DNA from: Escherichia virus TH34
Strand: one strand, 5' to 3'
Length of the DNA: 64,000 nucleotides
Sequence record: MT446407.1
Shown here: positions 1,796-36,027 of the stretch, piece after piece
Position numbering within the stretch: position 1 is the first letter of the stretch
Layout: each line of letters begins with the position of its first letter
Notes under the pieces: generated by a model
Told to the model about the DNA's origin: nothing
The model's input: only the letters and a program-made list of their open reading frames with translations
Databases searched by the model: none
Translations under genes and position numbers: made by a program

Positions 1796-1804
1796 ATGTT
1801 CTCC

Positions 1805-2551: not shown

Positions 2552-2611
2552 AATTGTGTCCTCCTAGTTGTGTATAGACAAAGAGAATACATTACACTTG
2601 GTCGTGTATAG

Positions 2612-2645
2612 GTCTTAAAGCAAGAAAAGCCGCCCGAAGGCAGCT
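2612..2645 (-). terminator. rho-independent terminator after the capsid/Ig gene (minus strand)
   Basis: minus-strand hairpin gctgcc-ttcg-ggcggc followed by ttttcttgcttt. Confidence 0.5.
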
Positions 2646-2855
2646 TAGGTTTATGCACCAGACTTGACAATATAAGTACGGAATATTGCGGAGGCTGGGT
2701 TAGTTCTGATTGAGATTTTAGTATCTTCACTGGTAATCGGAGCTGATAAAGTGATTGTCAACACCTGACCTGTTAAATCAACTTCCATCAAACCTACATC
2801 AGTGCCTTCTGTGTCATAAGTCAAAGCACCAACTACCGAACCCTGAGGTACACCA

Positions 2856-3515
2856 TCAAAAACGGACTACACCCGGTTGAGTGGAGTCAGTGATTGTGAT
2901 AGAGTCTGTAGCAAGAGGGTTCTCTGGAGCACCTACGACCACAGTGTTAGAAACAGTAGAAGCAACAAGGCCCGTAAGTTTCGGAGTAGCTGTGATTGTA
3001 GTGGTTGCTGTTACAGAAGTTTGAGTTTTATGAGTTGCTTTAACTGTAACTGTACCAGATGTGTTATCACCTAGGGTAAAAACTCCTGATGGGTTAAAAG
3101 ACCCCGCTGATGGAGGAGTTATCAAAAACTCATAATCAGAGAACGTTGAGTTAGTTGCTGTAAACATTGTGGTGAACGCTGTAGTGCTACCACCGATCTT
3201 ACCGGTGATTGGACCTCTTGTTACAATAGTAGCGGGCTCAAAAACAGATTGGACTGTAGCAGTACCTGTCTTACCACCTTTAGTTGCCGTAATAGTTGCT
3301 GGGGTTTCTTGCGACGCACTCGGTGCAGTATATAGCCCAGAAACAGAAACAGCCCCACCGCCTTCAACGGACCAACTAAATCCGGTTGTGCTTGTGGAGC
3401 CGTCGCTCATTTCTGCTGTAGCTGTAAACTGCTGAGTAGCCCCCGTCGGAAGGCTTGCAACCGACGAAGGACTAACAGTTACGGTATCTACTGTTACGCC
3501 GCCACTACCTTTCCC
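2856..3515 (-). CDS. Ig-like (BIG2-type) C-terminal extension of the major capsid protein, probably made by -1 frameshift
   Basis: about 220 aa Thr/Ser/Gly-rich with Ig-like repeats; reading frame is -1 relative to the capsid ORF and overlaps its 3' end; first in-frame ATG lies inside the capsid gene. Confidence 0.5.
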   Translation of the reverse strand, partial: GKGSGGVTVDTVTVSPSSVASLPTGATQQFTATAEMSDGSTSTTGFSWSVEGGGAVSVSGLYTAPSASQETPATITATKGGKTGTATVQSVFEPATIVTRGPITGKIGGSTTAFTTMFTATNSTFSDYEFLITPPSAGSFNPSGVFTLGDNTSGTVTVKATHKTQTSVTATTTITATPKLTGLVASTVSNTVVVGAPENPLATDSITITDSTQPGVVRF

Positions 3516-4555
3516 GCAGCAGTGAACAGAACACCGGAAGCGTATGGGTTGCGGTGACGCAGACCAACTTCCATTTCGATCATCCACTTCTCGTAAGAAC
3601 CGTCTTTAGCCAGTTCAGTACGCTTCGGTGCACGAAGAACCATCTGAGTCCAATCAGAGCTACGGAAGAAGTAAACTGCATCAGTAGGCATCCAACGGTT
3701 AACGATGATTTTATAGCTCTGACCCAGCGGGTCGGTGATGCTATTAACTTCGTAGATGAATTGTTTAGTGTTCTCAAAGATACGCTGACGAGAACCAACA
3801 GAGTTTTCCTGAAGCTTAGCGAAAACGCTAGCGTGAGCAGGGTTAATCATGATGATATCAGCTTCAGAACCTGCGGTATACAGCTGAAGAGTCATATCAA
3901 AGATATCTGCTTCATCAAAGCCTACGTTAGTGGTAGGGTTAGATGCGTTCTGTGCAACTTTAACAGTTACTGCACCGGTATCCGGGTCAGCAGGACCGTT
4001 CTTAGTCTTATCAACAACGCTACCAGACAGACCGCCATGAGCACACAGGAACTGGAAAGCACCAGTCTTACGAGCTGCATGAGTATCATTCAGACCAGCC
4101 AGAGCAGGATCAGCTGCTGAGTTAGTTAGATACTGGTCAGCCAGAACGTCGGTACGAGCCTGACCGGACAGCAAGATTTTCTCGAGGTCACGTTTAATCT
4201 CTTTACCTTTCTTCTCCAGCTGATACATCAGTTCACGACCACGACCGTAGTTAGCGGTGGTGTTAGCAGTATCAGAAACACGAACTACTTTACGCAGGAT
4301 CTGAGTTACGTTAGATTTGATAACAGTCGGTTGCATTTCACCGTCATCAGCGCGAGAGCCTTCAACGTGTGCGTTGTTAGCATCAACACTTGCCAGTGCA
4401 TCGGTCTGCCAGCTGAAAATAGTCTGGTTGATAGACTCTTTACCAGTCATAGACACAAACGGAGTATCTTGCGGAGAGAGGACAGAAATCCAGTTAGCAA
4501 AAGAAAGTTTTTTACCGTTCTGGTCGTAAGATACAAATAAAGTTGGATTTGCCAT
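3494..4555 (-). CDS. major capsid protein
   Basis: 353-aa ORF immediately downstream of the scaffold gene, upstream of the Ig-like extension and a terminator; strong RBS; assignment by position and size. Confidence 0.6.
   Translation of the reverse strand: MANPTLFVSYDQNGKKLSFANWISVLSPQDTPFVSMTGKESINQTIFSWQTDALASVDANNAHVEGSRADDGEMQPTVIKSNVTQILRKVVRVSDTANTTANYGRGRELMYQLEKKGKEIKRDLEKILLSGQARTDVLADQYLTNSAADPALAGLNDTHAARKTGAFQFLCAHGGLSGSVVDKTKNGPADPDTGAVTVKVAQNASNPTTNVGFDEADIFDMTLQLYTAGSEADIIMINPAHASVFAKLQENSVGSRQRIFENTKQFIYEVNSITDPLGQSYKIIVNRWMPTDAVYFFRSSDWTQMVLRAPKRTELAKDGSYEKWMIEMEVGLRHRNPYASGVLFTAAGKVVAA
3509..3515 (-). other. candidate -1 slippery heptamer G_GGA_AAG (minus-strand sense)
   Basis: capsid frame reads gcG GGA AAG gta gtg gcg gcg TAA; -1 frame reads GGG AAA GGT AGT GGC ... 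continuing into the Ig-like ORF. Confidence 0.5.
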
Positions 4556-4595
4556 GTTATGTTAGCTCCTATACTATTTAAAAATAATTTGTCGA

Positions 4596-5675
4596 TTAAT
4601 CTACGAGATACTTAAATGCATCTTCGTGACGAATGCGACCCTCTGAAAATGCCTTGGCAACCTTAGCGTTGTCTGGCGTATTGGAAGTACGAGACTTAGA
4701 AGAGTCGGACTTCACAACCTTACGTGGAGAACCCGGACGTTTAATCTTAGCCATTACCTGTTGCTTACCTTTATCAAATTGGTATGCTTTATGCAAAGCT
4801 AGGAAAATAGACGGACGATTCTCTTTCAAGACTTCTTCTTCTGTAGCACCGAGATCAATTGCATATTGCATCAGATTCTGATAAACACTGTCATCCCAAT
4901 TAGGAATTTCACGTTTCAATACATTAACACATTCGGTACATTTAGCTTGGAAGGCTTGCTGTTCTTTTGCTGCTGCATCTTGCTTGATCTTAACTTGCGC
5001 TTGTTCAAGCTGCTGACGACGAGCAGTGTACTTCTCTAAAAAGCGTTTGTTTTCAACATAGGCTTGTGGATCTTCAACTGCTAGCTTGTCCCAATCAAAA
5101 CCGTTATAATCTTCAATTACTCGGTCTGCTTCTAAGGACGCTAATTCTAATACATCCGCTAAACCACCTACACGCTCTTCAAAAGCTTCAACATGACGCT
5201 GAAGAACAGCTTCCCGTTCAGTCATATCGGAGCCAGTAACATAGCCATTTGATAACTCTTCAATAGTCATCTCACGACCATCAGGAAGGGTGATAACAGT
5301 TTCATAATCTACGTCGAAAGCATCACCTTCTTCGTATTCACTGTCAGTAGAATCATCGTGATCTACATCACTTGGTTCTTCATCTTCAACAACTTCATCA
5401 GAGTCGTCGTCTGAATCACCTTCATCGTCTTCTCCTTCCTCTTCTGAATCATCCCATCCTTCTTCATCTTCGAACGTGAGTTCATCACCCTTACCAAGAA
5501 GGTCGGAATCAAAGTCAAAGTTATCTCCAGTATCTTCTGGAAACTCACTGTCAATGTCCACTTCTGGTTCTTGTTCAGATTCTAATCGACTTAGGTCTTC
5601 TTTAAAAGATCCTTTCAAGTCATCAAGTTGGAGGAATGATTTAAAATCGTTTGGGTCTAAAAATTCATTTGCCAT
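4596..5675 (-). CDS. scaffolding protein
   Basis: 359 aa; highly acidic D/E-rich central part and helical C-terminus; located between portal and capsid genes. Confidence 0.55.
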   Translation of the reverse strand: MANEFLDPNDFKSFLQLDDLKGSFKEDLSRLESEQEPEVDIDSEFPEDTGDNFDFDSDLLGKGDELTFEDEEGWDDSEEEGEDDEGDSDDDSDEVVEDEEPSDVDHDDSTDSEYEEGDAFDVDYETVITLPDGREMTIEELSNGYVTGSDMTEREAVLQRHVEAFEERVGGLADVLELASLEADRVIEDYNGFDWDKLAVEDPQAYVENKRFLEKYTARRQQLEQAQVKIKQDAAAKEQQAFQAKCTECVNVLKREIPNWDDSVYQNLMQYAIDLGATEEEVLKENRPSIFLALHKAYQFDKGKQQVMAKIKRPGSPRKVVKSDSSKSRTSNTPDNAKVAKAFSEGRIRHEDAFKYLVD

Positions 5676-5911
5676 TAGGAATTATCTCCTGCACTATTGA
5701 TAGCAGCTTTTATGACCTCTTTTAAGCTACCAACCATTTTATACTTTTGATAACACTCTTCGCGTTTCTTTGACTCATGCACATCAGTTAAAACTATGTC
5801 TTTCATGAGGGTTTCTTTTAATGCCTCTAATGCTGCGTCAAGAATGCCGTTATGATTGAGAGCCGCCAAAGCGGCGGCATGCTCTTTATTGAATTGTTGT
5901 CTAGTATTCAT
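5675..5911 (-). CDS. hypothetical small protein
   Basis: 78-aa ORF between portal and scaffold genes. Confidence 0.35.
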   Translation of the reverse strand: MNTRQQFNKEHAAALAALNHNGILDAALEALKETLMKDIVLTDVHESKKREECYQKYKMVGSLKEVIKAAINSAGDNS

Positions 5912-5920
5912 TTAGTGTCC

Positions 5921-8164
5921 TTATTTTCTACTACCAAGCTTTCTATTAGGAATCCTAGAATCTTTGAGAGAACTCTGTTGTTCTTTCTTAGTTTCATTTG
6001 CTTCTTTCTTTTGGAGTTCCAAAGTCTTATCTTGAATTTTAGCTTGCTGGTCTACCTTCTCAAGATCAACCTGATGATTCATGGTCATCTGGAGTTCTTT
6101 CAGTATAGATTCATATTGACGAACCTGTTGCTGAAGGAGAGAAAGCTTATGCTTAGCTTGTTCAAGAGTAGCTGAGTTATCTTCCTTACGATTTTCGAGA
6201 GTCATCTGATCAGCAGCATTCTCTTGCTTGAATTGCAATTCTTCTTGACGCAAGCTGAACTCGTCCGCAGCTTTCTGCTGTTCAAACGTAGTACGTTCAC
6301 GCTGGTCGAATGCATCAGCAATCATCTTCTGAGAAGAAGCCTGTACGTTCTCAACCTGAGCTTTAGTCATCTCGAGCTGGAGGATTTCCATCGGAGAAGG
6401 CTGAGGAGGTTGATACTGTTCAAGAGGCATAAGATATTTATGAGTGTCTTTAATACCCATCAACTCAAAGATCTGTGCAGTCATATAACGATCTTGCTCC
6501 AGAGTAAAGAGAGGTGCAAGCTGAGCATCAGCAGCAATCAATTGCTTCAGGCTAATCAGTTTCTGTGCACGTTCTGATTTCTCAGTAGGAGAGATAGCTA
6601 CAACAACTTGTAAATTATGACGAGCTGGTAATTGTTTAGGATTTACTTCAACCATACCACGAGGGGTTTGAACCTGTAAAGGAACTTCACCATTTTCTCT
6701 GATAAGGTTGTAAATACCACGCATTAATTCAACCATACCATTATGAGCAATGTTACGACAAACCATACGGAGACGGTTCTGTGCAGCATTCATCATTAGA
6801 CCTACGGTTGCATATGCGTTATCATTCTTAAATACATCAGGGTTAATACCCATACCAAGTTTAGTAACACCTGTACGAGTTTCTTTCAACTCTTCAGACA
6901 TTCCTAACAGACCATCAATACCTTGAGGTAGATTGTGGTAAGGGAAGAGATCAATCGCATCCTGACGCTCCATTTCAACTACACCACCCGGACGGTTGTC
7001 TAGTAAAGAACGACGGTCATAGGCTCCTACAATGGCTTTATATCGACCATAGTTTGCGTTGTTAACGTTATCAATGTAACCACGGACAAGTGCTGTACGT
7101 AGGTCTTGAATATCTTTAGTAATGTCATACACGGATTGACCATAGAAGGAACCCGGAATAGGATAAGGACAGAAAGTAACAAACGGAATGCTAGTTACTT
7201 CTTCACAAGAGAGAATATGCTCACCTGCTTGGATTACTTGATAGAGTTTAGATTCTTTGTTATTATCCAATACACCTGTACGGATGTAATGTTCATAAAC
7301 CCAAACCATGCAAGCCACATCTTCAGTGTCCACACCAATGTCTGCATCAATGTCCTGTCTCCAGTCAGTACGTGACCAAGCAACTGTAGACTGAGTGGTG
7401 TCCATTGTATCAGTCCAGTCGTTAAACGCTTCGATCTCGTCTTTAGGGAAGCCCATTGCTAATAAATCATCTTTAGATTTACGTGTGCGATGACAGAAAT
7501 ACTGAGCATCTGCAAAAGAGGTAGCATGTTCGTCAACAAAGATTTGCTCTGAAGGAACATATTCTACTTTAACACGTTTTACTGTTTGTTTGTAAGTTAC
7601 TTTAACATCCACTGTTCCATCATCGTTTTCAGTGGTAAAGATTTCTAAATCTTGAAGTCCACCTGCTTCCATACCTTGTACGTATGCAGCCAAAGCTTCT
7701 GGAGGTACGCCCTCAGCCTCTTCTGTTTGGGTAGAGGTTTGTTCATCCCAATAGTATTTGATAAAAGAGTTACGTGTAACCAGACATTCCTGAGCCGCTG
7801 AGGAAATGATGTTATATCCCGGATTATCACGAAGCAAGATTTGGTTTACAAGCTTAGTTGCTACATCAGCTGCATCCGAATCTGCTTGGTTGTCCGCAAC
7901 AAACGTCACCGCTTCATCGCCTGAACAGAATACGTTAATGATATCTTGGAGAGTTCCGTTAACAGACTCCCATACTGTACGATCTACCCAACTAGAGCTT
8001 CCAGCAGTTACTGGAGCTGGTAAGTTTCCGTAGAAATATTCCCATGCTTCACGAGAATAACCTTTTACAGCGATGTCTACATAACCCTGTGCATAATTGA
8101 ATCGACGTTGAAGGTCAACGCGTAATTCATCCAAAATATCTTCACTAAATTTCTTCTTAGCCAT
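5921..8164 (-). CDS. portal protein with long C-terminal helical (barrel-like) extension
   Basis: 747 aa; directly downstream of large terminase; C-terminal about 150 aa Q/E/K-rich coiled coil as in P22-type portals. Confidence 0.65.
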   Translation of the reverse strand: MAKKKFSEDILDELRVDLQRRFNYAQGYVDIAVKGYSREAWEYFYGNLPAPVTAGSSSWVDRTVWESVNGTLQDIINVFCSGDEAVTFVADNQADSDAADVATKLVNQILLRDNPGYNIISSAAQECLVTRNSFIKYYWDEQTSTQTEEAEGVPPEALAAYVQGMEAGGLQDLEIFTTENDDGTVDVKVTYKQTVKRVKVEYVPSEQIFVDEHATSFADAQYFCHRTRKSKDDLLAMGFPKDEIEAFNDWTDTMDTTQSTVAWSRTDWRQDIDADIGVDTEDVACMVWVYEHYIRTGVLDNNKESKLYQVIQAGEHILSCEEVTSIPFVTFCPYPIPGSFYGQSVYDITKDIQDLRTALVRGYIDNVNNANYGRYKAIVGAYDRRSLLDNRPGGVVEMERQDAIDLFPYHNLPQGIDGLLGMSEELKETRTGVTKLGMGINPDVFKNDNAYATVGLMMNAAQNRLRMVCRNIAHNGMVELMRGIYNLIRENGEVPLQVQTPRGMVEVNPKQLPARHNLQVVVAISPTEKSERAQKLISLKQLIAADAQLAPLFTLEQDRYMTAQIFELMGIKDTHKYLMPLEQYQPPQPSPMEILQLEMTKAQVENVQASSQKMIADAFDQRERTTFEQQKAADEFSLRQEELQFKQENAADQMTLENRKEDNSATLEQAKHKLSLLQQQVRQYESILKELQMTMNHQVDLEKVDQQAKIQDKTLELQKKEANETKKEQQSSLKDSRIPNRKLGSRK

Positions 8165-8231
8165 CTAATCTCTCCCTCGGTTGATAGCTTGGAGTAAACT
8201 ACTAAAGGGAGGACTAGCCTCCCCACTATAT

Positions 8232-9773
8232 TTAGTAGCTTTGATTCCATCTGTTAATATTTTCTTGATAAAGCGACGAGCTACCATAGCTAGCGTCATG
8301 CTTAGACCGACCTCTGTGTGTAACAGAACAAGCTGAATATCGCATTGCGTCCATAAGGTCATCGTGTTCTTTAATAATCTTCCCAACTTTTCGATGGTAA
8401 CGTGCTTTCTCTTCAAAGAGCTTAGCACATGCGGTAGTATTAAAGACTTTGAATCGACCTGACATCATACGCTCACGAATATCAGTAATTCCTGGCTCCA
8501 CAAAGAAGTTCTTCTTACTATCCATTCCGATCTTGTTGTGGAAGGTATCATTTTGTACGTTTACTCCTGCATTTTTATAGAATTGTGCTACAGAAGCACC
8601 ACTTCCCTTCTCAATGTTATCAGCATCGTGAGGAAGAATGACTGGAATCCACTGACCACGACCATTAATAGCTGGTGCATGATACACTGGAGTAAAGCCA
8701 CTTTCTTTATAGCAGTCATAAATGTAGATTGTATCGGTGTTAGCATCATAAGCTGACCATACAGCTGCCGTCGGGTGATCAATACCAATATCAATGGCAC
8801 AAACACGTTTCCACGTATCAGGAATTTCAAACGGGTCACACTTAATTGAATCATCAGATACATCGTAAATCAAACCTGAACCCAACAGAGGCATACCTTT
8901 AGAGCGCATCTCTAGCTGCCATGCCGGAATACCTTCTGTCATATCCTTTATATCTTGGTCAGAGATGTGACCACCTAGGTCCACATGAGCATCCCACCAA
9001 GAAGCATTTTGGAAATACAGAGAACCTGTGTTCTCGTCCCCTTCACCTTTCATAAACTTGTCCACCAGCTCTGTTAATCCGTTCTCTGGTGTAGCTGTAA
9101 TCGTAACTAAACCTTTAGTAGTAAGTGTACGTGTTACGCACTGAGAGAAGATTGCCATACTTTCATAAGGATCTTCTTCGTCCAGCCAAATGTAATCCAC
9201 TGTAGCACCCATTAATGTGTGTTCACCCTGTTGGGTAGAACGAAACTCTAACGTACTCAGCCCATCAAATTCGCCTCTAGCATTTTGGTGCTTGATTTGT
9301 ACGATCTGTAATTTGTTTCCATCTCGTTCTATCGTGTCAATGACGATAGCGTCACGAGGAATAACACCCGTCCCTAATAAGTTTGTATCCTTTCCGATAG
9401 GTGTTCCAAATAATTCCTTTTGCAATACCTTTCTTGTAGAGTCCCCTGTAATCCCTACTGCCCAAGCCAATATGGGTCGATTAAATCTATATCCTGTCCA
9501 CCAAGTTGGGTAGCGACCTGTGACATGACAAGCAAACTCGTATGCCTCGCTGTAAGATTTACCAACACGGTTAGCTGCACACAGGAATCTAAAGCGATGC
9601 TTCAGTCCCGCTGCATAAAAGTCTTTCTGAAACTGGTATGCTTTAAAAGAAAGAATCCTATTATACTTTCTCCATTGATCTCTATCCTTCAGCATTTCAA
9701 GCAGAGCCTTCTTCTCCTCTACCGATAGCTTGTCTCCAGTTAGTGCTTCATATATTTCTTTATCTAATGACAT
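8232..9773 (-). CDS. terL: terminase large subunit
   Basis: 513 aa; Walker-A-like LCAANRVGKS near N-terminus; acidic residues consistent with a C-terminal nuclease domain; position upstream of portal. Confidence 0.8.
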   Translation of the reverse strand: MSLDKEIYEALTGDKLSVEEKKALLEMLKDRDQWRKYNRILSFKAYQFQKDFYAAGLKHRFRFLCAANRVGKSYSEAYEFACHVTGRYPTWWTGYRFNRPILAWAVGITGDSTRKVLQKELFGTPIGKDTNLLGTGVIPRDAIVIDTIERDGNKLQIVQIKHQNARGEFDGLSTLEFRSTQQGEHTLMGATVDYIWLDEEDPYESMAIFSQCVTRTLTTKGLVTITATPENGLTELVDKFMKGEGDENTGSLYFQNASWWDAHVDLGGHISDQDIKDMTEGIPAWQLEMRSKGMPLLGSGLIYDVSDDSIKCDPFEIPDTWKRVCAIDIGIDHPTAAVWSAYDANTDTIYIYDCYKESGFTPVYHAPAINGRGQWIPVILPHDADNIEKGSGASVAQFYKNAGVNVQNDTFHNKIGMDSKKNFFVEPGITDIRERMMSGRFKVFNTTACAKLFEEKARYHRKVGKIIKEHDDLMDAMRYSACSVTHRGRSKHDASYGSSSLYQENINRWNQSY

Positions 9774-9861
9774 GTTTCCTCCAATTAAAATAGAAAAGGG
9801 AGAGATCCCTCGCGAAAAGAACCCTCCCCTCTATTTACAGAATATGCTATCCTGTCTTCCT

Positions 9862-10338
9862 TTATTTGCTCTCGTCCGCTCCCTCCCCCTTTTCAGCGTC
9901 CTCAGAGTTGTCTTCTTCTGGAGGTAGCACATCTGCACCTAATGCTCCAGTCAAGAAGTCCTTGATTTGTGCGTTCAATGAATCTTCATTAATTACATTC
10001 TCTTCCTCAATCTTAATCTCAACAGAAGCTGCCTTCGGATATACCAGATCTGCAACTTTACTTGCAGCCTTGAATCTAAGATCAGGTGGAATATTTGGAT
10101 CTTCATAAATTTGAATCAACACTTCATCAGGGGACAGATGACTTGAAGCAACTCGGTCCAACATGAGCTGTGTCAACTTACCTCTACTACCTTTGGGTCG
10201 TCCGAACTTATTTCCCTTTTGGAACTTCCCTGTGCTTGGCTCCATACCACGGTTTTCCAATTCATCAGTTACACCGGGTAATCTTCCTGTAACCTCAGCT
10301 ACCTGTGCAGGCGTGAGTTCTCCTTTTTCTCCAAACAT
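9862..10338 (-). CDS. putative terminase small subunit
   Basis: 158 aa immediately upstream of terL; basic GRPKGSRG DNA-binding-like motif; acidic C-terminus. Confidence 0.4.
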   Translation of the reverse strand: MFGEKGELTPAQVAEVTGRLPGVTDELENRGMEPSTGKFQKGNKFGRPKGSRGKLTQLMLDRVASSHLSPDEVLIQIYEDPNIPPDLRFKAASKVADLVYPKAASVEIKIEEENVINEDSLNAQIKDFLTGALGADVLPPEEDNSEDAEKGEGADESK

Positions 10339-10403
10339 CTTATACTCCTTCTACATTATCGTTATAACAAAAAGCCTCCCACTAGAGGAGGCAACACCTT
10401 TTA

Positions 10404-11063
10404 TTAATCTACATTACCTACGTGTAGGTTGAACAAAGTCTGGAGAGCTACAGTTTCACCTTCCCAAGTCACTGGAACAGATTTGTCATTCTCTACATCA
10501 AAAGAAGAGGACGCCAAAAATTTTTTGTATTCTTCAAGCTCGGGGTCCAGAGCTTGTTCACTAGCATGTACCCACGTAACTACTTCATTACCTTCTTCAT
10601 CAATTACTACATTACGTGACCATTGATCTTTTGAATTTAAATAATTATTCAGAGCTTCATACTCGGCTTCTTCAATCATCTCAATCATTTCACGGGCATA
10701 GTCCGGTAGGTGTGCATGTTTGTCAGCTACATACGGAACAACTTCTAAATTGGATGGACACTTGCGTTTAACTTCTTTTGCTACAGTGAAATAATCTTTC
10801 ACATCTTTAGCTTCTGTACGAGGAATCAAACCTTCCCATAGTTCACGGGTTGAAGGAGCATGACCATACACAGAACCATGAGCCAGTTGTTTTACCATCT
10901 CAACTCGGGATTTACCTCCAGTAGTTTCATGAACACGATTCAGATAGAGAGTGTCCTCTGATAAAGGACGGAGATTACCATTGTAAACAACCTCGCCTTT
11001 ACATCCCATGTTCTCGTAGATTGCATTCAGTGTAGTAGTTCCTGTCATATTGTTATTCATCAT
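10404..11063 (-). CDS. hypothetical protein
   Basis: 219-aa ORF with good coding character; no confident motif. Confidence 0.45.
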   Translation of the reverse strand: MMNNNMTGTTTLNAIYENMGCKGEVVYNGNLRPLSEDTLYLNRVHETTGGKSRVEMVKQLAHGSVYGHAPSTRELWEGLIPRTEAKDVKDYFTVAKEVKRKCPSNLEVVPYVADKHAHLPDYAREMIEMIEEAEYEALNNYLNSKDQWSRNVVIDEEGNEVVTWVHASEQALDPELEEYKKFLASSSFDVENDKSVPVTWEGETVALQTLFNLHVGNVD

Positions 11064-11346
11064 TCTCTCCTTCAGTATTTACGTTATCACTATAACGATA
11101 ATCTTTAAACGTTTCAGCCTTGTAACTCACAAAGCATCTCATGTACAACCAGCCCAATGAACTAATGTCCATCGTAGCATCAAAATCTTCATCATCGTCT
11201 AGGTCTACTAATCTACCCAAACAACTCAATACCTCCTCCCCTTCATCAAATACAAATGCACATCTTTCAGTGCGGAAGTAAGGAAGCAGCTCTGATAAAA
11301 AGTCTAGAATCATTTTATATCTCCTCTGATATAAGAGAGTGATCAA
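11053..11346 (-). CDS. hypothetical acidic protein
   Basis: 97-aa ORF with a run of acidic residues (DLDDDEDFD). Confidence 0.35.
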   Translation of the reverse strand: MITLLYQRRYKMILDFLSELLPYFRTERCAFVFDEGEEVLSCLGRLVDLDDDEDFDATMDISSLGWLYMRCFVSYKAETFKDYRYSDNVNTEGENDE

Positions 11347-12522: not shown

Positions 12523-12550
12523 TTGACAAGTTTTTCCTTTAATATATAGT
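12523..12550 (+). promoter_or_regulatory. sigma70-type early promoter
   Basis: TTGACA (12523-12528), 16-nt spacer, TATAGT (12545-12550); upstream of the first early gene. Confidence 0.5.
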
Positions 12551-12595: not shown

Positions 12596-13459
12596 ATGTC
12601 AAAGTTAGCAATTAAATACTTGAATCAAGCAAATGATGTACTTTCTCCGTTAGGTCTTTCCGTTGGTGTGCCTTCTCAATGGATGGATAACCAGCAAGCT
12701 CGTACCAGCTTTAAAAACTCTGTCATTCTGGCTTGTCTTATCATAGATTCCGCTGCGAACGCCTTACAGTGTGAAGATGAGCAGTCAATGAAAGAGAATG
12801 GTTTTACAGATATGCAAGATGCTATCAACTGTTACATTCAGGCTAATTTAGATAGTTGGACTCAGAATGATTGGCCTGAATCTTGCCGCGATGTTAACGC
12901 AGTATTATCCCGCTTGTCTGCTATGGTTGAAGCTATTCAGAACAAGAAGAAGAAAGATAGTAAGCCTTCTATTGCAAGTAAGATTATGAAGTCTGTCAAC
13001 CTTGCAAGTTATGCGCTGGTTGCAGCTATCAGTGTTAGTGCTATCGCTACCAATGTGCAGGCAAAAGACTCTCTTTCTACAGGTCTGCAATCCTTTGTTA
13101 GCACGTTTAAGAATGCTCCTGATATGGCTTGCCGTGACGTTGGCAGTGATGGTAATGATTCATTTTGGAAGGTGCATTTTAACTCTGTAACCGTAAAAGA
13201 TGTGCGTGTCACTCTTACCCCGTTAAGTGAGAAATCAGGCATTCAGTCGGTTATTAATTTAAAGCGTGCTGATAGTGATCATGACATGGTTACATACTCT
13301 CTATATCAGAAGGTTGAGAAAGAGAAATTACAGTTCGTGACTAATCTCGTTAGCTATGGTGATGTTAGTGAAACTGTACTCGCTACCACTGCTTACAATG
13401 ACGGTGTAGCAGTTTATACAACCTTTATTAACTTTGCTAATTGTGAGGCTATCCAGTGA
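12596..13459 (+). CDS. early hypothetical protein
   Basis: 287-aa ORF with RBS aaaggatta upstream; first gene after the early promoter. Confidence 0.55.
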   Translation: MSKLAIKYLNQANDVLSPLGLSVGVPSQWMDNQQARTSFKNSVILACLIIDSAANALQCEDEQSMKENGFTDMQDAINCYIQANLDSWTQNDWPESCRDVNAVLSRLSAMVEAIQNKKKKDSKPSIASKIMKSVNLASYALVAAISVSAIATNVQAKDSLSTGLQSFVSTFKNAPDMACRDVGSDGNDSFWKVHFNSVTVKDVRVTLTPLSEKSGIQSVINLKRADSDHDMVTYSLYQKVEKEKLQFVTNLVSYGDVSETVLATTAYNDGVAVYTTFINFANCEAIQ

Positions 13460-13704
13460 ACGAATCATTTGCAACCGTAATAAACTCCCATATGTGCATC
13501 CAGCATGGTGATTTGGTTATCAGCGGTAAATATGGGCTTGTACTGATTCCTATCCGTGCTTTGGCTTCCTTGTCTTCAGCACATGCACGCATGACTATTG
13601 CCCGGTTGTCCGGCCTTGATCCGATGGATGCTAACGAATATCGTGATTTGCTGGTTAAATCCGGTCTATCACTGGAAGAACTGTTAACCGTCGAGGATCG
13701 TTAA
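13456..13704 (+). CDS. hypothetical small protein
   Basis: 82-aa ORF; start overlaps the upstream stop (translational coupling). Confidence 0.4.
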   Translation: MNESFATVINSHMCIQHGDLVISGKYGLVLIPIRALASLSSAHARMTIARLSGLDPMDANEYRDLLVKSGLSLEELLTVEDR

Positions 13705-13816
13705 TGGTGATTCATAAATACTTTTTGCATTGCCTGATTGCTTTCTGTATCATGTTATTTACCTATGACATGATTTCTTATGTTGCACGTTCTTTTTAAG
13801 GATTGCCCCAATCGTA

Positions 13817-14158
13817 TTGGAGGATTGGATTATGAAAATTAAATTAGCTGTATGTGCTGCCTTGTTCGCTGTTTCTTCCGTGTCTTATGCTGCCGTATTC
13901 AATGAGGCTAATCTCGATGGCCTGCAATGTACCTACCTTATGGAAAATTACGACACTGGCAAGAAGTCCAGCAAGGTAGTATTGATTGACCTGAATGACT
14001 ACGACAACAAGGTTGTTGATAGCAAATATGCGATGCTTGTTAACGAAGCTACAGGCAAACAAATTACTATTGATCACATGATGCGGTCTAGTATGACGTT
14101 GTTCGATGAGTCGATGAACGAAATATCATCCGGTAACGGCACTTGCACCAATCCGTAA
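13817..14158 (+). CDS. small secreted/periplasmic protein
   Basis: 113 aa; N-terminal signal peptide MKIKLAVCAALFAVSSVSYAAV; RBS ggagg upstream. Confidence 0.5.
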   Translation: MEDWIMKIKLAVCAALFAVSSVSYAAVFNEANLDGLQCTYLMENYDTGKKSSKVVLIDLNDYDNKVVDSKYAMLVNEATGKQITIDHMMRSSMTLFDESMNEISSGNGTCTNP

Positions 14159-14177
14159 CCAACCCGTAAGACTTCCT

Positions 14178-14204
14178 AAGCGCCCTTTTGAGGCGCTTTT
14201 TTCA
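14178..14204 (+). terminator. rho-independent terminator
   Basis: aagcgccc-tttt-gaggcgctt followed by a T-run. Confidence 0.6.
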
Positions 14205-14705
14205 TTTCTAAGGTGATTGCACATCTTGCCCCTGTTTAGCTCGTTAGAACGCCTCCTGTATGCCTTATTTTCGATTATAAGGCTTGTTTTCTTCCTCCCC
14301 TGATGTTATTCGTGCGCGTGCTCATCTATACCTAAAAGAAAGTGAAATTATTTTAGAAAAAGGTATTGCTTTCTTTGCTTGATAGATTTATATTTGAATC
14401 TCAGGTTTAGTTATGCAGTCGGTAACAAGCCTGATAGGCTAGACTTTTAGCCTTGCTCTTTAAAAACAAGGTTTGCTTAGGAGTGGTGCTAACAAGCGTC
14501 ATTACTATAAGGCACTTAGTTGATTATCCTAGTCGATTCCTCTTTCATGCGTGGATTTGGCGGCCTATAAGGTCGATACTTCAAAGAAATCAGCGTTTAA
14601 CAGTGTACTAGATTCTCTCAAGGCAAACTTTGTTTACTAGCTCTTTAAAAATTCGATTAGTGTATCTTGATAAACTCCCAACCATGCCATAATGAGGATT
14701 TATCC

Positions 14706-14906
14706 ATGAACATTTACACCTTCTCAAGCAAAGACACGCAAATCACTTGCACTAGCATTAACGTTACTAACATGATTATGAGAATAGTCGGTAGCACGTT
14801 ACAGCAAGCGAAAGAAATGATAGCTGATGCCGACAATGGCAAATCTATCGCGGTGTTATCGCTGGTAAGTACGGATAAAGATTTAACCTTTAAACGTATG
14901 AACTAA
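14706..14906 (+). CDS. hypothetical small protein
   Basis: ATG at 14706 preceded by gagga RBS; 66 aa; lies inside the ORF-poor region. Confidence 0.3.
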   Translation: MNIYTFSSKDTQITCTSINVTNMIMRIVGSTLQQAKEMIADADNGKSIAVLSLVSTDKDLTFKRMN

Positions 14907-14967
14907 GGTAGGTTAGCGGCCTCAATGGTCGCTAGTTTATCAAGATGCATTAATCGAAAAATAGTTG

Positions 14968-14995
14968 TTGACACGTCGAATCACTATGATAAGAT
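14968..14995 (+). promoter_or_regulatory. sigma70-type promoter
   Basis: TTGACA (14968-14973), 16-nt spacer, TAAGAT; A-rich upstream. Confidence 0.45.
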
Positions 14996-15002
14996 GTGAT
15001 CT

Positions 15003-15127
15003 CAGCAGTACAGAACACTTCCAGATAGATGATTAGCATCATGTAAAAAGGCTTAAACTGGAAGGAGTGGGAACACTCAAGGCACGACGCCGAGGAAGAC
15101 GGCGACATATTTAACGCTCTTTAACAA
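15003..15127 (+). ncRNA. candidate short transcript (promoter to hairpin + GCTCTTTAACAA element)
   Basis: no ORF; bounded by the promoter at 14968 and a cgccg/cggcg hairpin followed by the conserved motif at 15116-15127. Confidence 0.25.
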
Positions 15128-15199
15128 ATTATCATCTTGCCCTTTCGCATAGATTCAAGCGAGATAAGGGAATAGAATAAAAGAAGATGATAAAAAGAG

Positions 15200-15227
15200 T
15201 TGACAAGGTGAAACACTCTGTTAGAAT
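15200..15227 (+). promoter_or_regulatory. sigma70-type promoter
   Basis: TTGACA (15200-15205), 16-nt spacer, TAGAAT (15222-15227). Confidence 0.55.
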
Positions 15228-15234
15228 GTTCACT

Positions 15235-15394
15235 AAGCAAGGCAACTTGCTAAACAGTTCCCTAAGTGACGTAGCGCGGGAAAGGTGGCACATAGTGCAG
15301 CGCGTAGGTCGGGTATAGCCGCCCCGTTAGTGCATAAGTAGGCTTAAAAATGAAATGTTTGCGGAGTCATGAAAACCGCACCGCTCTTTAAAAA
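15235..15394 (+). ncRNA. candidate short transcript
   Basis: no ORF; ends with hairpin gcgg...ccgc followed by CCGCTCTTTAAAAA (15383-15394). Confidence 0.25.
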
Positions 15395-15497
15395 TATGAA
15401 TCAGAAAGTTAAGCGCAACCGCTTACAATCTTGTTAATCCAATGCGTGATTAACTAGTCATTCGAAAGAATAGACGAGAAAAAGATTTAAAAAGTGG

Positions 15498-15526
15498 TTG
15501 ACACGCTAAACGGGATGATTCATAAT
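15498..15526 (+). promoter_or_regulatory. sigma70-type promoter
   Basis: TTGACA (15498-15503), 17-nt spacer, CATAAT (15521-15526). Confidence 0.55.
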
Positions 15527-15532
15527 GAGCAC

Positions 15533-15620
15533 TCACTAGGCAACTAGTGAAACGCGAAACCACGGCGAACGGTGGCGGGAGGTGAGAAAGCACCTCGATA
15601 GATTTACCGCTCTTTAACAA
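15533..15620 (+). ncRNA. candidate short transcript
   Basis: no ORF; ends with CCGCTCTTTAACAA (15609-15620). Confidence 0.25.
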
Positions 15621-16437
15621 TTTAAACTTCTTCCTATATCGGTTGAACATGATGAGCAATAATAACCATTGCAAGTCATGCCAGATAAAACGATGTAAGG
15701 CGCTCTAGAGTATCAGAGAAAACGGCCTTGCAATCCCTTACTGGAAACGATGCCACTGATAAACGAAGTTATCGAGTACATGCAATGCTTAAGCTAATCA
15801 CCTACGGTTAAAGGGTAGCGGCGGCGGGGCTAGTAAAGTGCTACGGTAATAGACGTTAATCAGGGTAATCAATCCCGACTAATTTAGCTCAATAGCGAGC
15901 GACGGAATGAAGGTTAAAGAGTAGCAAATTGCTATTTAATAATAAGGTTTAAGTGTGAGTGTTTACTGAGCAAGTTGTTTGATGCACATCAATATGATGT
16001 GAGTACATAACAATGCAATGTAGTAAACCGTGAGAGAGATAATCAAACGCCAATTTATCAGGCGGTTAATGACTCTTTGCCATATACTTTCCCGTAGTAG
16101 GTGATAAGTCGGCTTAGAGAGTTAATATAAAAGGGTATCGCGGAGCGAACGTAAAGTAAACAGTAATGCTATCGGCTAGAAGGTTAGCTAATTAGAGATA
16201 GACACACTGCCTTATTATGATGATTAATCATCGCTGGCAAATCGGCTTCGTTTATAGCGATTAATAGAATCCACCGGATGAAACATCATGGCAAGTTAGG
16301 CGGCAAGGTTAACTCCTGATAAGTCCGCCTGATTTACCACTGATTACTAATAGTTAGTGATTAGTGTTAAGTCATTGTGACTTGAATAGCTCATAGAGAG
16401 CGGCGCATAGAGCGTTTCAATTAAAAGGTAAATTATC

Positions 16438-17340
16438 ATGGCTAAATCTTTCAATCTGGTTAATGAATCCGGTTTTAACGCACTGGCTAACAACATTCGC
16501 AGCAATAACGCAGCAATTAAGCAAGATGTTTCTAACTTCCTGTTAGGTCACTTACAGCACTTCCGTGCTAACGGTAAGAAGTTAGACGTGTTACAGGCGG
16601 CGGTAGACTTCCTGTTAACTGAACGTTACCGTGATTTAGATGTGATTGCAGTTGCAATTTCTTTCCTAACTCCTGTTAAGTACAACAGCGACGCGGCGAA
16701 CGGTAAAAAGAAATGGATTAATCTGGAAGGTGAAGCGAAAGCGAAAGAAGACGCTAAACCTGAACAAGTTAAGGCCAAAATGGAACAAAACCGTGCCCGC
16801 TGGTCTAACTCCTTTGAACGCTTTGCGAAAGGCGAAGACGTGCAGGTTGATAACCCAGCATTTTATAAAGGTTGCAACGACAACGTTCCGGTAGCAAATC
16901 AGATTAACCAGAAGGTTAACGAAAACTTTAATCAGGACATTTACGCTTTAACTGATCGTTTGGCTGCAATCCGTATTGAAGCGGCACTACTGGCCGATGA
17001 ACGCAACGGAGCATCTTCTGATAACACTATCGCATTGAGTGAAGAAGTAGGCAAAGTTAAGAAAACTTTCGATTCACTCCTTAAGAAAGTAACCGCATCA
17101 ACTGTATCTATCAGCGATGACTACTTGATTAACGCATCTTCAAAAGAGCTTGAATCTCTGGACTCATACGCTGATGAAATGGAAAAGGCGATCAACGAAA
17201 TGACCGAAAAATTGTCTAACCTTCGCGGTCGTATCTCAAATGCTTCAACTGTCAAAGCGAACGAGAAAGCGGCGGCAGACGAGGAAGAAGTATTGCGTAA
17301 AGCTGCCGAGATCATGGCAGCACGCCAACAAGCTGCATAA
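16438..17340 (+). CDS. early hypothetical protein (300 aa), predicted helical
   Basis: long ORF with RBS; followed by a strong terminator; no recognisable motif. Confidence 0.6.
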   Translation: MAKSFNLVNESGFNALANNIRSNNAAIKQDVSNFLLGHLQHFRANGKKLDVLQAAVDFLLTERYRDLDVIAVAISFLTPVKYNSDAANGKKKWINLEGEAKAKEDAKPEQVKAKMEQNRARWSNSFERFAKGEDVQVDNPAFYKGCNDNVPVANQINQKVNENFNQDIYALTDRLAAIRIEAALLADERNGASSDNTIALSEEVGKVKKTFDSLLKKVTASTVSISDDYLINASSKELESLDSYADEMEKAINEMTEKLSNLRGRISNASTVKANEKAAADEEEVLRKAAEIMAARQQAA

Positions 17341-17360
17341 CCTACAATAAAGAACATATA

Positions 17361-17394
17361 AGGCGCTATTCGAAAGGGTAGCGCCTTTTCTTTT
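17361..17394 (+). terminator. rho-independent terminator
   Basis: aggcgctat-tcgaaagg-gtagcgcct followed by tttcttttact. Confidence 0.6.
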
Positions 17395-17448
17395 ACTAGT
17401 GCATTGATTCAGTGTACTAATCAAAGAAACTAAAAAGAGATAAACACC

Positions 17449-17673
17449 ATGCCAAAATTGAAAACAGAAGTTAAGATGTATCGTAACGTCATCAACAACA
17501 TGACCTATCGAAAAACCGATAAATATGGAATCGAGTGTAAGTGCATTCTTACCGGTGAATGGTATCCGTCGCCGATTCAAGAACAAGCGTTAATTGAAAA
17601 CTCTGTTACTTACACTATCACGCAGGAAACTAAGCTAGGCCGATTCCTTCGTAAGTTAGGGCTACGCAAATGA
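17449..17673 (+). CDS. hypothetical small protein
   Basis: 74-aa ORF with RBS. Confidence 0.4.
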   Translation: MPKLKTEVKMYRNVINNMTYRKTDKYGIECKCILTGEWYPSPIQEQALIENSVTYTITQETKLGRFLRKLGLRK

Positions 17674-17891
17674 TCTTAACTCAATCCCATTTGTGTCCTA
17701 TCTGTAAGAAAGCGCGTGCTAATAACAATCATCGCAAGTGTAGCAGAATCCTACAGCGTCGTCGTAATGATGCCGAGATGGATAAAATGCACAAAAACCA
17801 GCATGAGCACGAAAGAAAACAAGCGGCGATCAATGCATCTTCTGTAATGTATCGTCGTGTAAGATCACTCCAATATAAGGATGCTATCTAA
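17670..17891 (+). CDS. small basic Cys-containing protein
   Basis: 73 aa; CPICKK...HRKC motif; very basic. Confidence 0.4.
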   Translation: MILTQSHLCPICKKARANNNHRKCSRILQRRRNDAEMDKMHKNQHEHERKQAAINASSVMYRRVRSLQYKDAI

Positions 17892-18100
17892 TGACCAGTT
17901 TAAGCACGTTAGAGAAGAAAGCTACTCGACTGCTAGGGCGTCGTGTCCGCTATCACTACCTGAATAAAGGTAAGGCATTAACCGGACGTATTACCACGGT
18001 GTCCAGTCGCTGCGGTAAGTTAATATCTGTAAGTGTCCTCTTTGATGGCGAACGTGTAGCAATTACACGTAGTTGGAAGTCGTTTAGTTTAATTGATTAA
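17891..18100 (+). CDS. small KOW/SH3-like protein, paralog group with 19807 and 19984
   Basis: 69 aa; LLGRRVRY...GRITTV pattern resembling the two ORFs at 19807-20169. Confidence 0.4.
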   Translation: MTSLSTLEKKATRLLGRRVRYHYLNKGKALTGRITTVSSRCGKLISVSVLFDGERVAITRSWKSFSLID

Positions 18101-18170
18101 GTTATTTGGTTAAGCCTTGCTATGTGGTAAGGCTTGCACGATATAATTTATCAGCGAAAGGAATAAAGCA

Positions 18171-18614
18171 ATGGCTAAATCTAAAATCAGCATGAAAGGC
18201 GGGCGTGTGTTCTCGATGAGTGAACTGGAAAAAGATAAGCCAGTCGCTACTAACCACATTAGCAAACGTAGCCTTAAACGTAGAGCTATCAAACAAACCG
18301 CTCAAGAACATAAACCCTCTACCGTAGCAAAGGTGTTAGGTCGTCGTGTTCATCGTGCTGATGCGCTTCTTAAAGCTGATCATAACCGTTCACTGTTAAC
18401 CAACGGTGCAGCGAAAACAGAAGAAGAGAAACGTTTAGAAATCTATTGCAACGGTCGCACTAAAGGTAAGCAGAAGAATAAAGGTAGCACTAAGCCACCG
18501 AAAGCTTTCCCTACTACTAGTCAATGTGCACCGGATGTTTTCTACGCTGACAGTCAGCATAAGTGGGGAGTCGAAAAATACATTGACCCCATCAAGGAAG
18601 CGAGAGTAAAGTAA
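18171..18614 (+). CDS. highly basic protein (possible nucleic-acid-binding)
   Basis: 147 aa, Lys/Arg-rich throughout. Confidence 0.45.
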   Translation: MAKSKISMKGGRVFSMSELEKDKPVATNHISKRSLKRRAIKQTAQEHKPSTVAKVLGRRVHRADALLKADHNRSLLTNGAAKTEEEKRLEIYCNGRTKGKQKNKGSTKPPKAFPTTSQCAPDVFYADSQHKWGVEKYIDPIKEARVK

Positions 18615-18855
18615 GCCTCTTCTCTGTACCAGTAGTCAACTACTATGACGCTCTTCTTGAGCGTCTTTGTGTCTGCCGCCTTTGTGCGGCTTTTTGCGTA
18701 GCTAGTGATGCCTAAAGGGCACTCCCTTTGTGAATCATTGGCATGGTTCAATCCCTATTGGATGGTCATTTGACCGGGCCTTTAACGAGGCCGCTTTTTT
18801 AAGAGTCTTTACGAGGATTCTTAAATGAGTGAGGTCATGTTCACTCTTTCAGGTC

Positions 18856-18882
18856 GCCCCGTCTTCGGATGGGGCTTTTTTA
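18856..18882 (+). terminator. rho-independent terminator
   Basis: gccccgtc-ttcg-gatggggc followed by ttttttat. Confidence 0.6.
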
Positions 18883-18909
18883 TGCCCGTAAAACAGGAGG
18901 TAGTAAGTT

Positions 18910-19320
18910 CTGATAACGACAGCCCAGCTACTTTTGACATTGACTATTTATTATGAGGCAGGGAATCAGCCAACCGCTTGCAAAGCATTAGTAGCGGATA
19001 CCGTAATAAACAGAATGTCACAACGAAAACTGACTGCCGAGCAGGTTATAAACCAACGAAACCAGTTCGAGTGGATACCCGTCTTATTAAAGAAGGAGAA
19101 ACCTTTCAAACGTTATGTAAAGCTAATTCGTGATGATAATCCCCTGATAAAGAAGTCAATCAGAGAGAGCGAGCGGCTTGCAAGGCGTGCACTGAAGAAA
19201 AGTTATGTGCCTTTATACAGTGGTACATACTTTCAGAGTAAGAGCGAAGGGGTGCCAAAGTGGTATACCAATCCAATGTATTGTGGTGATTTAGTGTTCA
19301 ATAATAGTGCCCGTGACTGA
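18910..19320 (+). CDS. SleB/CwlJ-like cell wall hydrolase (start codon uncertain, non-ATG)
   Basis: YYEAGNQ, VADTVINRM, NQRNQFEWI, SERLARRAL, PKWY segments match the CwlJ/SleB family pattern; no in-frame ATG or GTG after stop at 18904; AGGAGG at 18895-18900 is 9 nt upstream of CTG 18910. Confidence 0.55.
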   Translation: MITTAQLLLTLTIYYEAGNQPTACKALVADTVINRMSQRKLTAEQVINQRNQFEWIPVLLKKEKPFKRYVKLIRDDNPLIKKSIRESERLARRALKKSYVPLYSGTYFQSKSEGVPKWYTNPMYCGDLVFNNSARD

Positions 19321-19521
19321 TTCATAGGTGCCAAGATTGACAAACTAAATTTCCTTATAAATCACCTACTTATGATTTTCTCTGCAAAAAGTGGTAGTGA
19401 TTCGGAACCAGAGGTAATGACTGTATATAGACCTCTGAAAATTATTGATAGAAATTAAGTTTAGAAATAATAAATTCTAAATAATATTTCTTATAATATC
19501 TTACTTTAAGAGGATAAAGAT

Positions 19522-28708: not shown

Positions 28709-28716
28709 AGGCGAAT

Positions 28717-30466: not shown

Positions 30467-30475
30467 GGTGTTATC

Positions 30476-32199: not shown

Positions 32200-32276
32200 C
32201 ACAATGGGCGCTCTGATAAAGGGCGCATTTAAAGGTTAATTAGATGAAAGGGTTTACCCTTCAGGTGGATTAGAAA

Positions 32277-34310: not shown

Positions 34311-34321
34311 GAGGTGAAGTT

Positions 34322-34757: not shown

Positions 34758-34759
34758 AA

Positions 34760-36007: not shown

Positions 36008-36027
36008 TTAAACAAAAGGAATTTGTA

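Follow-up and report, generated by a model that had tools for sequence, protein, structure and literature searches.

What is encoded by a stretch of more than 2 kb with hardly a credible gene in it, placed at the start of a long gene block of a virulent coliphage, and why is it kept? This question is raised by positions 14160-16437 of a 64,000-nucleotide (nt) stretch of Escherichia virus TH34 DNA (MT446407.1), which was analysed at its full length and is hereafter called the window. An original prediction, made from the window alone, had described the region as poor in open reading frames (ORFs), with three near-consensus promoters each followed by a short hairpin and a recurring motif, and had likened it to an array of short non-coding RNAs or a decoy cluster. 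The 2.6 kb around the region matched approximately 90 Escherichia and Shigella podophages of the phiEco32 group (Gordonclarkvirinae), with TH42 as the top match (97%) followed by Bas88, NC-B, PAS59 and SU7, and judged by these matches the window belongs to a phiEco32-like podophage of E. coli. Its genes are laid out on the minus strand from 38 to 11346 and on the plus strand from 12596 to approximately 58.7 kb, and the region is therefore the head of a long rightward early/middle gene block. In every relative examined, the homolog of phiEco32 gp124 is preceded by 1.9-2.3 kb in which no credible gene is found, and in phiEco32 itself the corresponding gap is found between gp125 and gp124. As described below, the region is probably the head of an early transcription unit built like an rRNA (rrn) operon, in which boxA-dependent anti-termination would carry the polymerase through a large structured leader RNA and into the early genes.

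The recurring motif, GCTCTTTAA(A/C)AA, was present in five exact copies, all on the plus strand and inside 1.2 kb. As originally listed, the exact sequence GCTCTTTAAMAA occurred at 14455, 14640, 15116, 15383 and 15609, and it was found nowhere else in the 64 kb; with up to one mismatch allowed, 1.2 occurrences were expected, and five were reached in none of 100 shuffles. The rrnH operon of E. coli K-12 served as the host comparison sequence. Its leader reads ...CTGCTCTTTAACAATTTATCAGAC... and contains the boxA TGCTCTTTAACAA (AACAA type), its 16S-23S spacer reads ...TTGCTCTTTAAAAATCTGGATCAAG... and contains the boxA TGCTCTTTAAAAA (AAAAA type), and the 12-mer of every phage copy was identical to one or the other. 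Copies 1 (14455..14466) and 2 (14640..14651) both read GCTCTTTAAAAA, copy 1 being of the rrn-spacer type with two hairpins in front of it and copy 2 likewise matching the consensus. Copy 3 (15116..15127, GCTCTTTAACAA) is of the rrn-leader type, and its counterpart behind the homologous promoter P1 of Bas88 matches the rrnH leader without a difference for 19 nt. Copy 4 (15383..15394, GCTCTTTAAAAATATGAATCA) shares 20 of 26 positions with the boxA region of the rrnH 16S-23S spacer, and copy 5 (15609..15620, GCTCTTTAACAATTTA) belongs to 16 nt identical to the rrnH leader. The longest unbroken match to the host was thus 16 nt in the window; for the leader type it reached 19 nt in Bas88, and for the spacer type distant relatives had 16 nt.

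All five copies also matched GYTCTTTAANA, the experimentally derived boxA consensus of gamma-proteobacteria (Baniulyte 2017, PMC5725501). This consensus had seven matches in the window versus 0.6 expected, and the two outside the region lay on the non-transcribed strand of their genes. In rrn operons, boxA is the RNA site bound by NusB-NusE(S10) and the most important element among the anti-termination signals (PMC8632103). On these sequence grounds, we identify the motif as the host rrn boxA anti-termination signal, represented by both host variants. Its identification in the phiEco32 group appears to be new: a literature search, whose coverage did not extend to the primary phiEco32 and SP6 genome papers, found nothing joining phiEco32 with boxA or Kuravirus with non-coding, and boxA and structured RNA both go unmentioned in PMC8948821 and PMC4281155. 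Sub-threshold Rfam matches to Ysr197 (Yersinia sRNA 197) fell on three of the boxA sites (15099-15137, 15358-15406 and 15566-15630), and the Ysr197 family may contain an rrn-leader-like boxA. A further, degenerate boxA-like sequence, GCTATTTAA(T/C)AA, is located on the plus strand at 15930-15941, approximately 505 nt before the downstream ATG. It starts in the 3′ arm of a hairpin (15919..15937) and extends a few nt beyond it, so that half of the copy, GCTATTTAACAA, is inside the hairpin, and its C4-to-A change fails the functional consensus; in the boxA of suhB, the double change C4T/T6C abolishes the recruitment of SuhB (PMC5725501).

The three promoters predicted at 14968, 15200 and 15498 were recovered by a consensus sigma-70 scan with scores of 10-11 of 12. 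P1 (14968..14995, plus strand, TTGACA-N16-TAAGAT) carries a TG extended -10 and an A-rich upstream tract, P2 (15200..15227, plus strand, TTGACA-N16-TAGAAT) and P3 (15498..15526, plus strand, TTGACA-N17-CATAAT) each score 11/12, and P1 and P2, like P3, are conserved. Across the 64 kb, 11/12 was reached only at 12523, 15200 and 15498, in all cases on the plus strand and heading the plus-strand gene block. Three such sites are not above chance (approximately two expected), and the weight of the promoter evidence is in the clustering and in the conservation among 16 relatives rather than in this count. The three promoters are in fact already known, since in phages of this group the early genes are served by four sigma-70 promoters that head the cluster (PMC8948821), one upstream and three in the spacer region (PMC4281155). 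In addition, a lenient scan gave a candidate weak promoter, P0 (14366..14394, plus strand, TTGCTT-N17-TATATT, 8/12), which is uncertain but has 82% A+T upstream, and whose position is occupied by a strong promoter module in relatives. Within 16400-36399, sigma-70-like sites were depleted (15 versus 38 ± 7 expected, none scoring at least 11/12), plus-strand intrinsic-terminator-like sites were enriched (27 versus 15 ± 4), and strong plus-strand terminators followed at 17360, 18856, 21494 and 26908. This depletion of promoters, together with the terminators, fits the published placement of the early promoters (PMC8948821, PMC4281155).

Both a hairpin and the motif do follow the promoters as had been claimed, but the hairpins lie 5′ of the motif, as they do in the rrnH leader folded identically, and copies 3-5 are on the transcribed strand 148, 183 and 111 nt past the -35 elements of P1, P2 and P3, respectively. 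In the predicted folds, the motif was unpaired in four of the five leaders; the fold of the P2 leader was poorly determined, with part of the motif paired. The order in rrn operons is boxB followed by boxA, the reverse of that in lambda nut (Said & Wahl 2021, PMC8632103). At 15578..15597 on the plus strand, 11 nt 5′ of the last boxA, lies a boxB-like hairpin whose AGAAAG loop is conserved and whose stem covaries (helix 4 of alignment A1, with compensatory changes in three of seven pairs).

This arrangement bears directly on the reading in which each promoter makes its own abundant RNA of 80-150 nt ending at the hairpin and the motif, so that the region would hold a series of small RNAs or act as a decoy cluster of promoters and terminators. 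Hairpins and a motif containing T's do follow strong promoters, 14436-14453 plus TGCTCTTTAA was called terminator-like by the consensus scan, and the P1 and P3 leaders fold better than their shuffles (z approximately -2.6 and -2.8, respectively). Such short transcripts nevertheless seem very improbable to us. The motif is a host anti-terminator that offers only three consecutive U and no U-tract, it is mostly unpaired, and the hairpins stand 9-12 nt away from it in most modules, so that a GC-rich stem followed by at least five U is nowhere formed by hairpin and motif. A terminator scan likewise found no GC-rich stem with a U-tract between the modules, its sole call there (14436-14453) arising from the T's that boxA supplies. 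Moreover, the P2 leader shrinks to approximately 20 nt without a hairpin in relatives, and boxA is still kept. The idea of a highly transcribed, essentially non-coding early region that encodes RNA is therefore supported, while neither the short RNAs ended by hairpin and motif nor the decoy cluster could be upheld.

The promoter-to-boxA module was found to be widely conserved. Sixteen close relatives from three genera carry 3-5 such modules each, and the 12-mer is kept, barring rare one-base variants, in these 16 and in nine distant relatives, with its variation almost wholly confined to the N position of the consensus (A, C or T). The length of RNA between the -10 element and boxA varies among relatives from approximately 20 to 155 nt, as exemplified by the P2 leader, which measures approximately 20 nt in SU7 and Bas88 versus 155 nt in the window. 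Counted from the ATG of the gp124 homolog, the last promoter (P3 in the window) is at approximately -945, the last boxA at approximately -830 and the previous boxA at approximately -1060 in every close genome, and the last boxA is at -870 to -936 in the distant ones. Because no U-tract terminator separates the modules, the three promoters most likely feed one long rightward transcript.

The number of copies could also be taken to mean that boxA acts as a sink, titrating NusB, S10 and SuhB away from host rrn operons to aid the shut-off of ribosome synthesis, with anti-termination in cis being secondary. Five copies per genome (3-5 in relatives) exceed what a single transcript would need, they mimic both types of host site exactly, flanks included, and the promoters behind them are the strongest of the window. 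The copy number, however, is simply explained if each promoter module has its own boxA, a single copy suffices in T7, and the last boxA keeps a constant place immediately ahead of a structured RNA, which points to a role in cis. We thus regard a Nus-factor sink as improbable.

The stretch of 15.7-16.4 kb, which had been noted for its stop codons in all frames and left unexplained, indeed had no stop-free run of more than 52 codons on either strand. No conserved ORF was found in 15621-16437 among the relatives, and the substitutions were free of codon periodicity (113, 111 and 110 variable columns per phase). Homologous phages carrying conserved protein genes at this position would have spoken against a non-coding region, and the relatives instead keep it gene-free. 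Close relatives, at approximately 75% identity, have 825-834 nt between the last boxA and the ATG; the leader is full-length, although mostly unannotated, in all 97 phage records with a gp124 homolog, and its length is also conserved in nine distant metagenomic relatives. The structural comparison across homologous phages that had been proposed as a check gave a covariation-supported fold: RNAalifold applied to 17 sequences yielded 237 pairs, 67 of them with compensatory changes. In this alignment, 99.0% of the cells were paired, compared with 94.1 ± 0.2 upon shuffling and 34-50% when the partner was slid by 1-3 columns, and the 67 double-change pairs compared with 30.3 ± 3.3 upon shuffling (reached in 0/500) and 4-9 upon sliding, these controls being read with the caveat that the structure was derived from the same alignment. 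Seven full-length metagenomic sequences outside the derivation of the structure showed 98-99.6% pairing, although they are close relatives, and a single-sequence fold of the window reproduced the same main helices (z = -3.7).

The type of base pair further discriminated between RNA and DNA as the level of selection. That the conservation reflects a DNA function, such as a replication origin, a packaging site or a protein-binding array, might be argued from a long conserved non-coding stretch adjoining strong promoters, and the primary origin of T7 also follows tandem promoters. In the alignment, however, G-U accounted for 11.5% of the paired cells and A-C for 0.3%, and the compensatory changes kept G-U pairs, which would be A-C on the other strand, so that pairing was 99.0% on the plus strand versus 87.8% on the other. 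The fold therefore fits only the plus-strand RNA, that is, the strand transcribed from the promoters. Strand specificity is strict for the boxA copies as well, no direct-repeat or iteron structure was noticed, and a DNA-level element accordingly ranks as the least probable of the explanations considered. As to a replication origin in particular, the turning point of the GC skew was located at approximately 12-12.5 kb, outside the region. We conclude that 15621-16416 is an approximately 800-nt structured RNA, encoded on the plus strand, conserved and supported by covariation, and that the formerly unexplained stretch makes up its larger part.

The RNA is organized into three domains, all on the plus strand. 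Domain I (15621..15918) is closed by a long-range helix pairing 15621-15634 with 15904-15918, which starts directly after the last boxA, and all eight of its pairs (8/8) were compensatory once the distant relatives were added. A conserved hairpin (15919..15937) stands between domains I and II. Domain II (15939..16218) is closed by a long-range helix of approximately 22 bp, formed by 15939-15966 with 16156-16218, in which AAUAAGG/CCUUAUU is replaced by AAUUUGG/CCAAAUU in the ~50% clade, as read from the aligned sequences; compensatory changes were also present in neighbouring helices of the stem (A4 helices 11 and 12). Domain III (16219..16416) consists of successive conserved hairpins and reaches to the ribosome-binding site, which is unpaired in the consensus fold. 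Local alignment of domains I and II was no better than for shuffles, and an internal duplication was rejected; a CsrB-like sponge with GGA loops and an anti-Shine-Dalgarno mimic were likewise rejected, since the candidate motifs were not conserved among relatives in alignment A1, as read by eye. In Rfam 15, no match to the leader attained the gathering score, and raising E up to 10 gave only chance-level matches besides Ysr197 on boxA. Nothing similar to the leader RNA was found in E. coli genomes, and the RNA is therefore neither host-derived nor prophage-borne. The large leader RNA thus appears to be previously undescribed.

The gene that follows, at 16438..17340 on the plus strand, encodes a 300-amino acid (aa) homolog of phiEco32 gp124, which always adjoins the leader and belongs to phrog_13018 (unknown function). 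It had no Pfam family, its AlphaFold model was mostly helical (pLDDT 71), and no match to its fold was found in PDB or BFVD beyond its own family. A strong intrinsic terminator after the gene (17360..17387, plus strand; a 12-bp stem then TTCTTTT) would be an obstacle to transcription reading through. The gp124 family reaches proteins that are 49-69% identical, and nine contigs with distant homologs share a common layout, in which 1-3 exact boxA and strong promoters are on the strand of the gene and the 2-3 kb gap holds no called genes or hardly any. Their leaders are 53-80% identical to each other and match the window leader in patches, with the conserved islands and helices aligning. In the resulting alignment of 24 sequences, 130 consensus pairs were 95.2% paired (shuffled, 78.2%; slid, 36-45%), 101 of the 130 pairs were compensatory (shuffled, 61 ± 4; slid, 34-43), and the covariation score was 0.535 versus 0.21 upon shuffling and approximately 0.09 upon sliding. 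A covariance model of one arm (R1), built from too-similar sequences, picked up only one distant relative, weakly (E 0.011). In five metagenomic relatives (L150, L151, L153, L155 and L156), the gene-free gap 5′ of the gp124 homolog measures approximately 3 kb (about 950-4000 per locus), and the stretch 5′ of their boxA modules might hold more RNA structure.

What the leader is for can be stated with less confidence. We infer that it would have a function of its own, as a stable, possibly processed RNA or as the partner in a ribonucleoprotein (RNP), rather than being a spacer. The more specific proposal that it represents a new class of large functional phage RNA, made like rRNA from rrn-type promoters, shielded from Rho and helped to fold by the Nus/SuhB complex, its helix-closed domains possibly released by RNase III, and acting itself in host takeover, is put forward tentatively, at rather less than even odds; if it is true, the RNA might form an RNP with the gp124-family protein or might bind or sponge a host factor, and would not just be a 5′ untranslated region (UTR). 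A somewhat more doubtful proposal reduces the leader to a long 5′ UTR that regulates the gp124 homolog, for instance by controlling its translation or stability. The leader is always directly upstream of this gene, across proteins only 49-68% identical, no terminator separates the two, and the ribosome-binding site is unpaired. Against this, a length of approximately 800-930 nt, three domains, long-range helices and deep conservation go far beyond the needs of known bacterial UTR regulators. A purely regulatory UTR is in any case compatible with an rrn-like early transcription unit and differs only in the purpose given to the RNA.

By analogy with established rrn anti-termination (PMC8632103, PMC5725501), Nus factors would be loaded, and anti-termination would be set up, at the phage boxA. 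Host sigma-70 polymerase would start at P1-P3, and possibly also at the weak P0 or by reading through from upstream, and each transcript would carry an unpaired rrn-type boxA within 20-150 nt. NusB-NusE(S10) bound there, together with NusA, NusG and SuhB, would then assemble the rrn-type elongation complex, which is fast, pause-resistant and Rho-resistant. With the 5′ boxA tethered to the polymerase, long-range RNA helices would be favoured, and the placement of the first long-range helix directly after boxA matches this rrn logic, in which the tethered 5′ element aids long-range pairing (PMC8632103). The untranslated, folded leader of approximately 800 nt could in this way be transcribed without Rho-dependent termination, and the polymerase would continue into the gp124 homolog and the early/middle block of approximately 40 kb, which is almost without other strong sigma-70 promoters.

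Several observations weigh against this proposal. A GT-rich boxC (TGTGTGGG-like) was absent after boxA at all five copies, the last boxA being followed by a strand of the long-range helix instead, and copies 1 and 2 have only the weak candidate promoter or upstream read-through in front of them. The rrn-type complexes overcome mainly Rho-dependent terminators and intrinsic ones weakly; most transcripts may therefore still be halted at 17360, and boxA would then mainly serve the leader and the gp124 homolog. The leader itself is heavily folded and has more G than C (skew +0.12), and may thus be a poor Rho substrate even without boxA. Finally, neither boxA nor, by the criteria applied to the window, a strong promoter was found in the right-end 11 kb of Salmonella phage 7-11, a distant morphological relative.

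The region is not without other features. Its longest plus-strand ORF has 79 codons (14667-14906), in line with the original description of the region as ORF-poor, but the ATG form of this ORF (14706..14906, plus strand, 66 aa, with a Shine-Dalgarno sequence) is probably a real small gene, and the region is therefore not wholly non-coding. It behaves as a clade-specific accessory gene: its product is conserved at 94-97% amino-acid identity in five close relatives (NC-B, TH43, Bas86, SU7 and Bas88), is annotated as gp104 in SU7, was not found in the phiEco32 clade and had no match in Pfam or PHROG. A sequence reading TTGATA-N15-TGcCATAAT, with an extended -10, lies directly before it (14667-14693), and a transcript starting there would lose the Shine-Dalgarno sequence of the ORF. 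On the upstream side, a fourth strong promoter (12523-12550, plus strand, TTGACA-N16-TATAGT, 11/12), which lacks a boxA of its own, heads a small operon (12596-14158) closed by an intrinsic terminator (14178..14198, plus strand) with a 7-bp GC-rich stem then TTTTTCATTT; a promoter 5′ and a terminator 3′ of this small gene group were also given in the SU10 paper (PMC4281155). Polymerase that started at 12523 and read past the terminator at 14178 would next transcribe boxA copies 1 and 2. The last ORF of this operon (13817-14158) is labelled 'terminase' in several GenBank records and by PHROG 13168, and the label looks doubtful because the product has only approximately 108 aa and a signal-peptide-like start, MKIKLAVCAALFAVSSVSYA. 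The sole Rfam or ARAGORN match in the window was a tRNA-Arg (anticodon TCT) at 23393-23468, inside the early gene block.

The architecture of the region is most readily compared with that of the E. coli rrn operons, with which it shares strong sigma-70 promoters in tandem, preceded by A-rich tracts, an unpaired boxA that follows a hairpin and is identical over 12-19 nt in both leader and spacer variants, and a long untranslated structured RNA whose first long-range helix adjoins boxA. It differs from them in lacking boxC, in having discriminators that are not GC-rich and a separate boxA for each promoter, and in producing an RNA of approximately 0.8 kb that is unrelated to rRNA and is followed by protein genes. 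As with lambda nut/N, the host polymerase would be made resistant to termination through boxA and Nus factors where an early operon begins (PMC8632103). The phage modules described here, unlike nut, have the hairpin before boxA, a full host boxA consensus and hairpin loops that differ between modules. Lambda has the order boxA-spacer-boxB and a weakened boxA, CGCUCUUA, and requires the N protein, which binds boxB. No N-like protein was identified in the phage, although no systematic search for one was made. The boxA in the 5′ UTR of suhB likewise sits on a non-rRNA transcript, matches the consensus and recruits Nus factors (PMC5725501), but it lies beside the Shine-Dalgarno sequence, represses translation and promotes Rho termination, whereas the last phage boxA is approximately 830 nt from the start codon. 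As for the RNA, GOLLD, ROOL and similar Rfam RNAs are also several hundred nt long, multi-domain, covariation-supported, phage-borne and of unknown function; in contrast to them, the leader RNA is confined to phiEco32-like phages and their relatives, has a fixed position as a 5′ leader and carries rrn-type expression signals.

Comparable modules were present in other virulent phages. T7 (NC_001604, L139) has a perfect rrn-type boxA, GCTCTTTAACAATCTGG, at nt 813-824, 63 nt past the A3 start and before gene 0.3. As in the phage studied here, a virulent coliphage that uses host polymerase for its early genes thus has an exact boxA after tandem strong promoters (A1-A3), but T7 has one boxA for three promoters, approximately 100 nt to the first gene and no large structured RNA. 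SP6/K1-5-like podophages have three boxA in the left-end early region, as in Klebsiella phage K1-ULIP33 (L140; nt 737, 1358 and 2018); many 'hypothetical proteins' of 40-60 codons are annotated in that region. An IMG/VR scan for GCTCTTTAACAATT (14 nt) returned mostly chance matches and gives no frequency estimate, only loci with 2-3 clustered copies being informative. One of these, viral contig L103, which had no match in the phage collection, has boxA at 4206, 4530 and 5539 on one strand, the first approximately 25 nt past a perfect TTGACA-N17-TATAAT and sharing a CTGAGAAATCAGCAA hairpin with the second, and by its sequence it constitutes an independent example of the promoter-to-boxA module.

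Phages of the phiEco32 group depend on the host polymerase for the whole of infection, and the anti-termination strategy of phage 7-11 has been stated as still to be defined (PMC8948821). For the phiEco32 group, an exact host boxA behind every early promoter would provide a concrete answer to the anti-termination question. The module recurs in T7, in SP6-like phages and in an unrelated metagenomic phage, which suggests that virulent enterobacterial phages commonly borrow rRNA anti-termination for their early phase. With boxA behind early host-type promoters, the phiEco32 group adds a new example, more elaborate than the others but akin to that of T7; the substantive novelty is the large, covariation-supported leader RNA. 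Its recognition corrects spurious small 'hypothetical protein' annotations on the leader stretch. With approximately 800 nt and over 200 base pairs in its covariation-supported fold, it ranks among the larger structured RNAs of E. coli phages that can be cultivated and manipulated genetically, and it is carried by approximately 100 sequenced coliphages that are candidates for therapy and by deeper metagenomic relatives, so that the function of a large phage RNA becomes directly testable.

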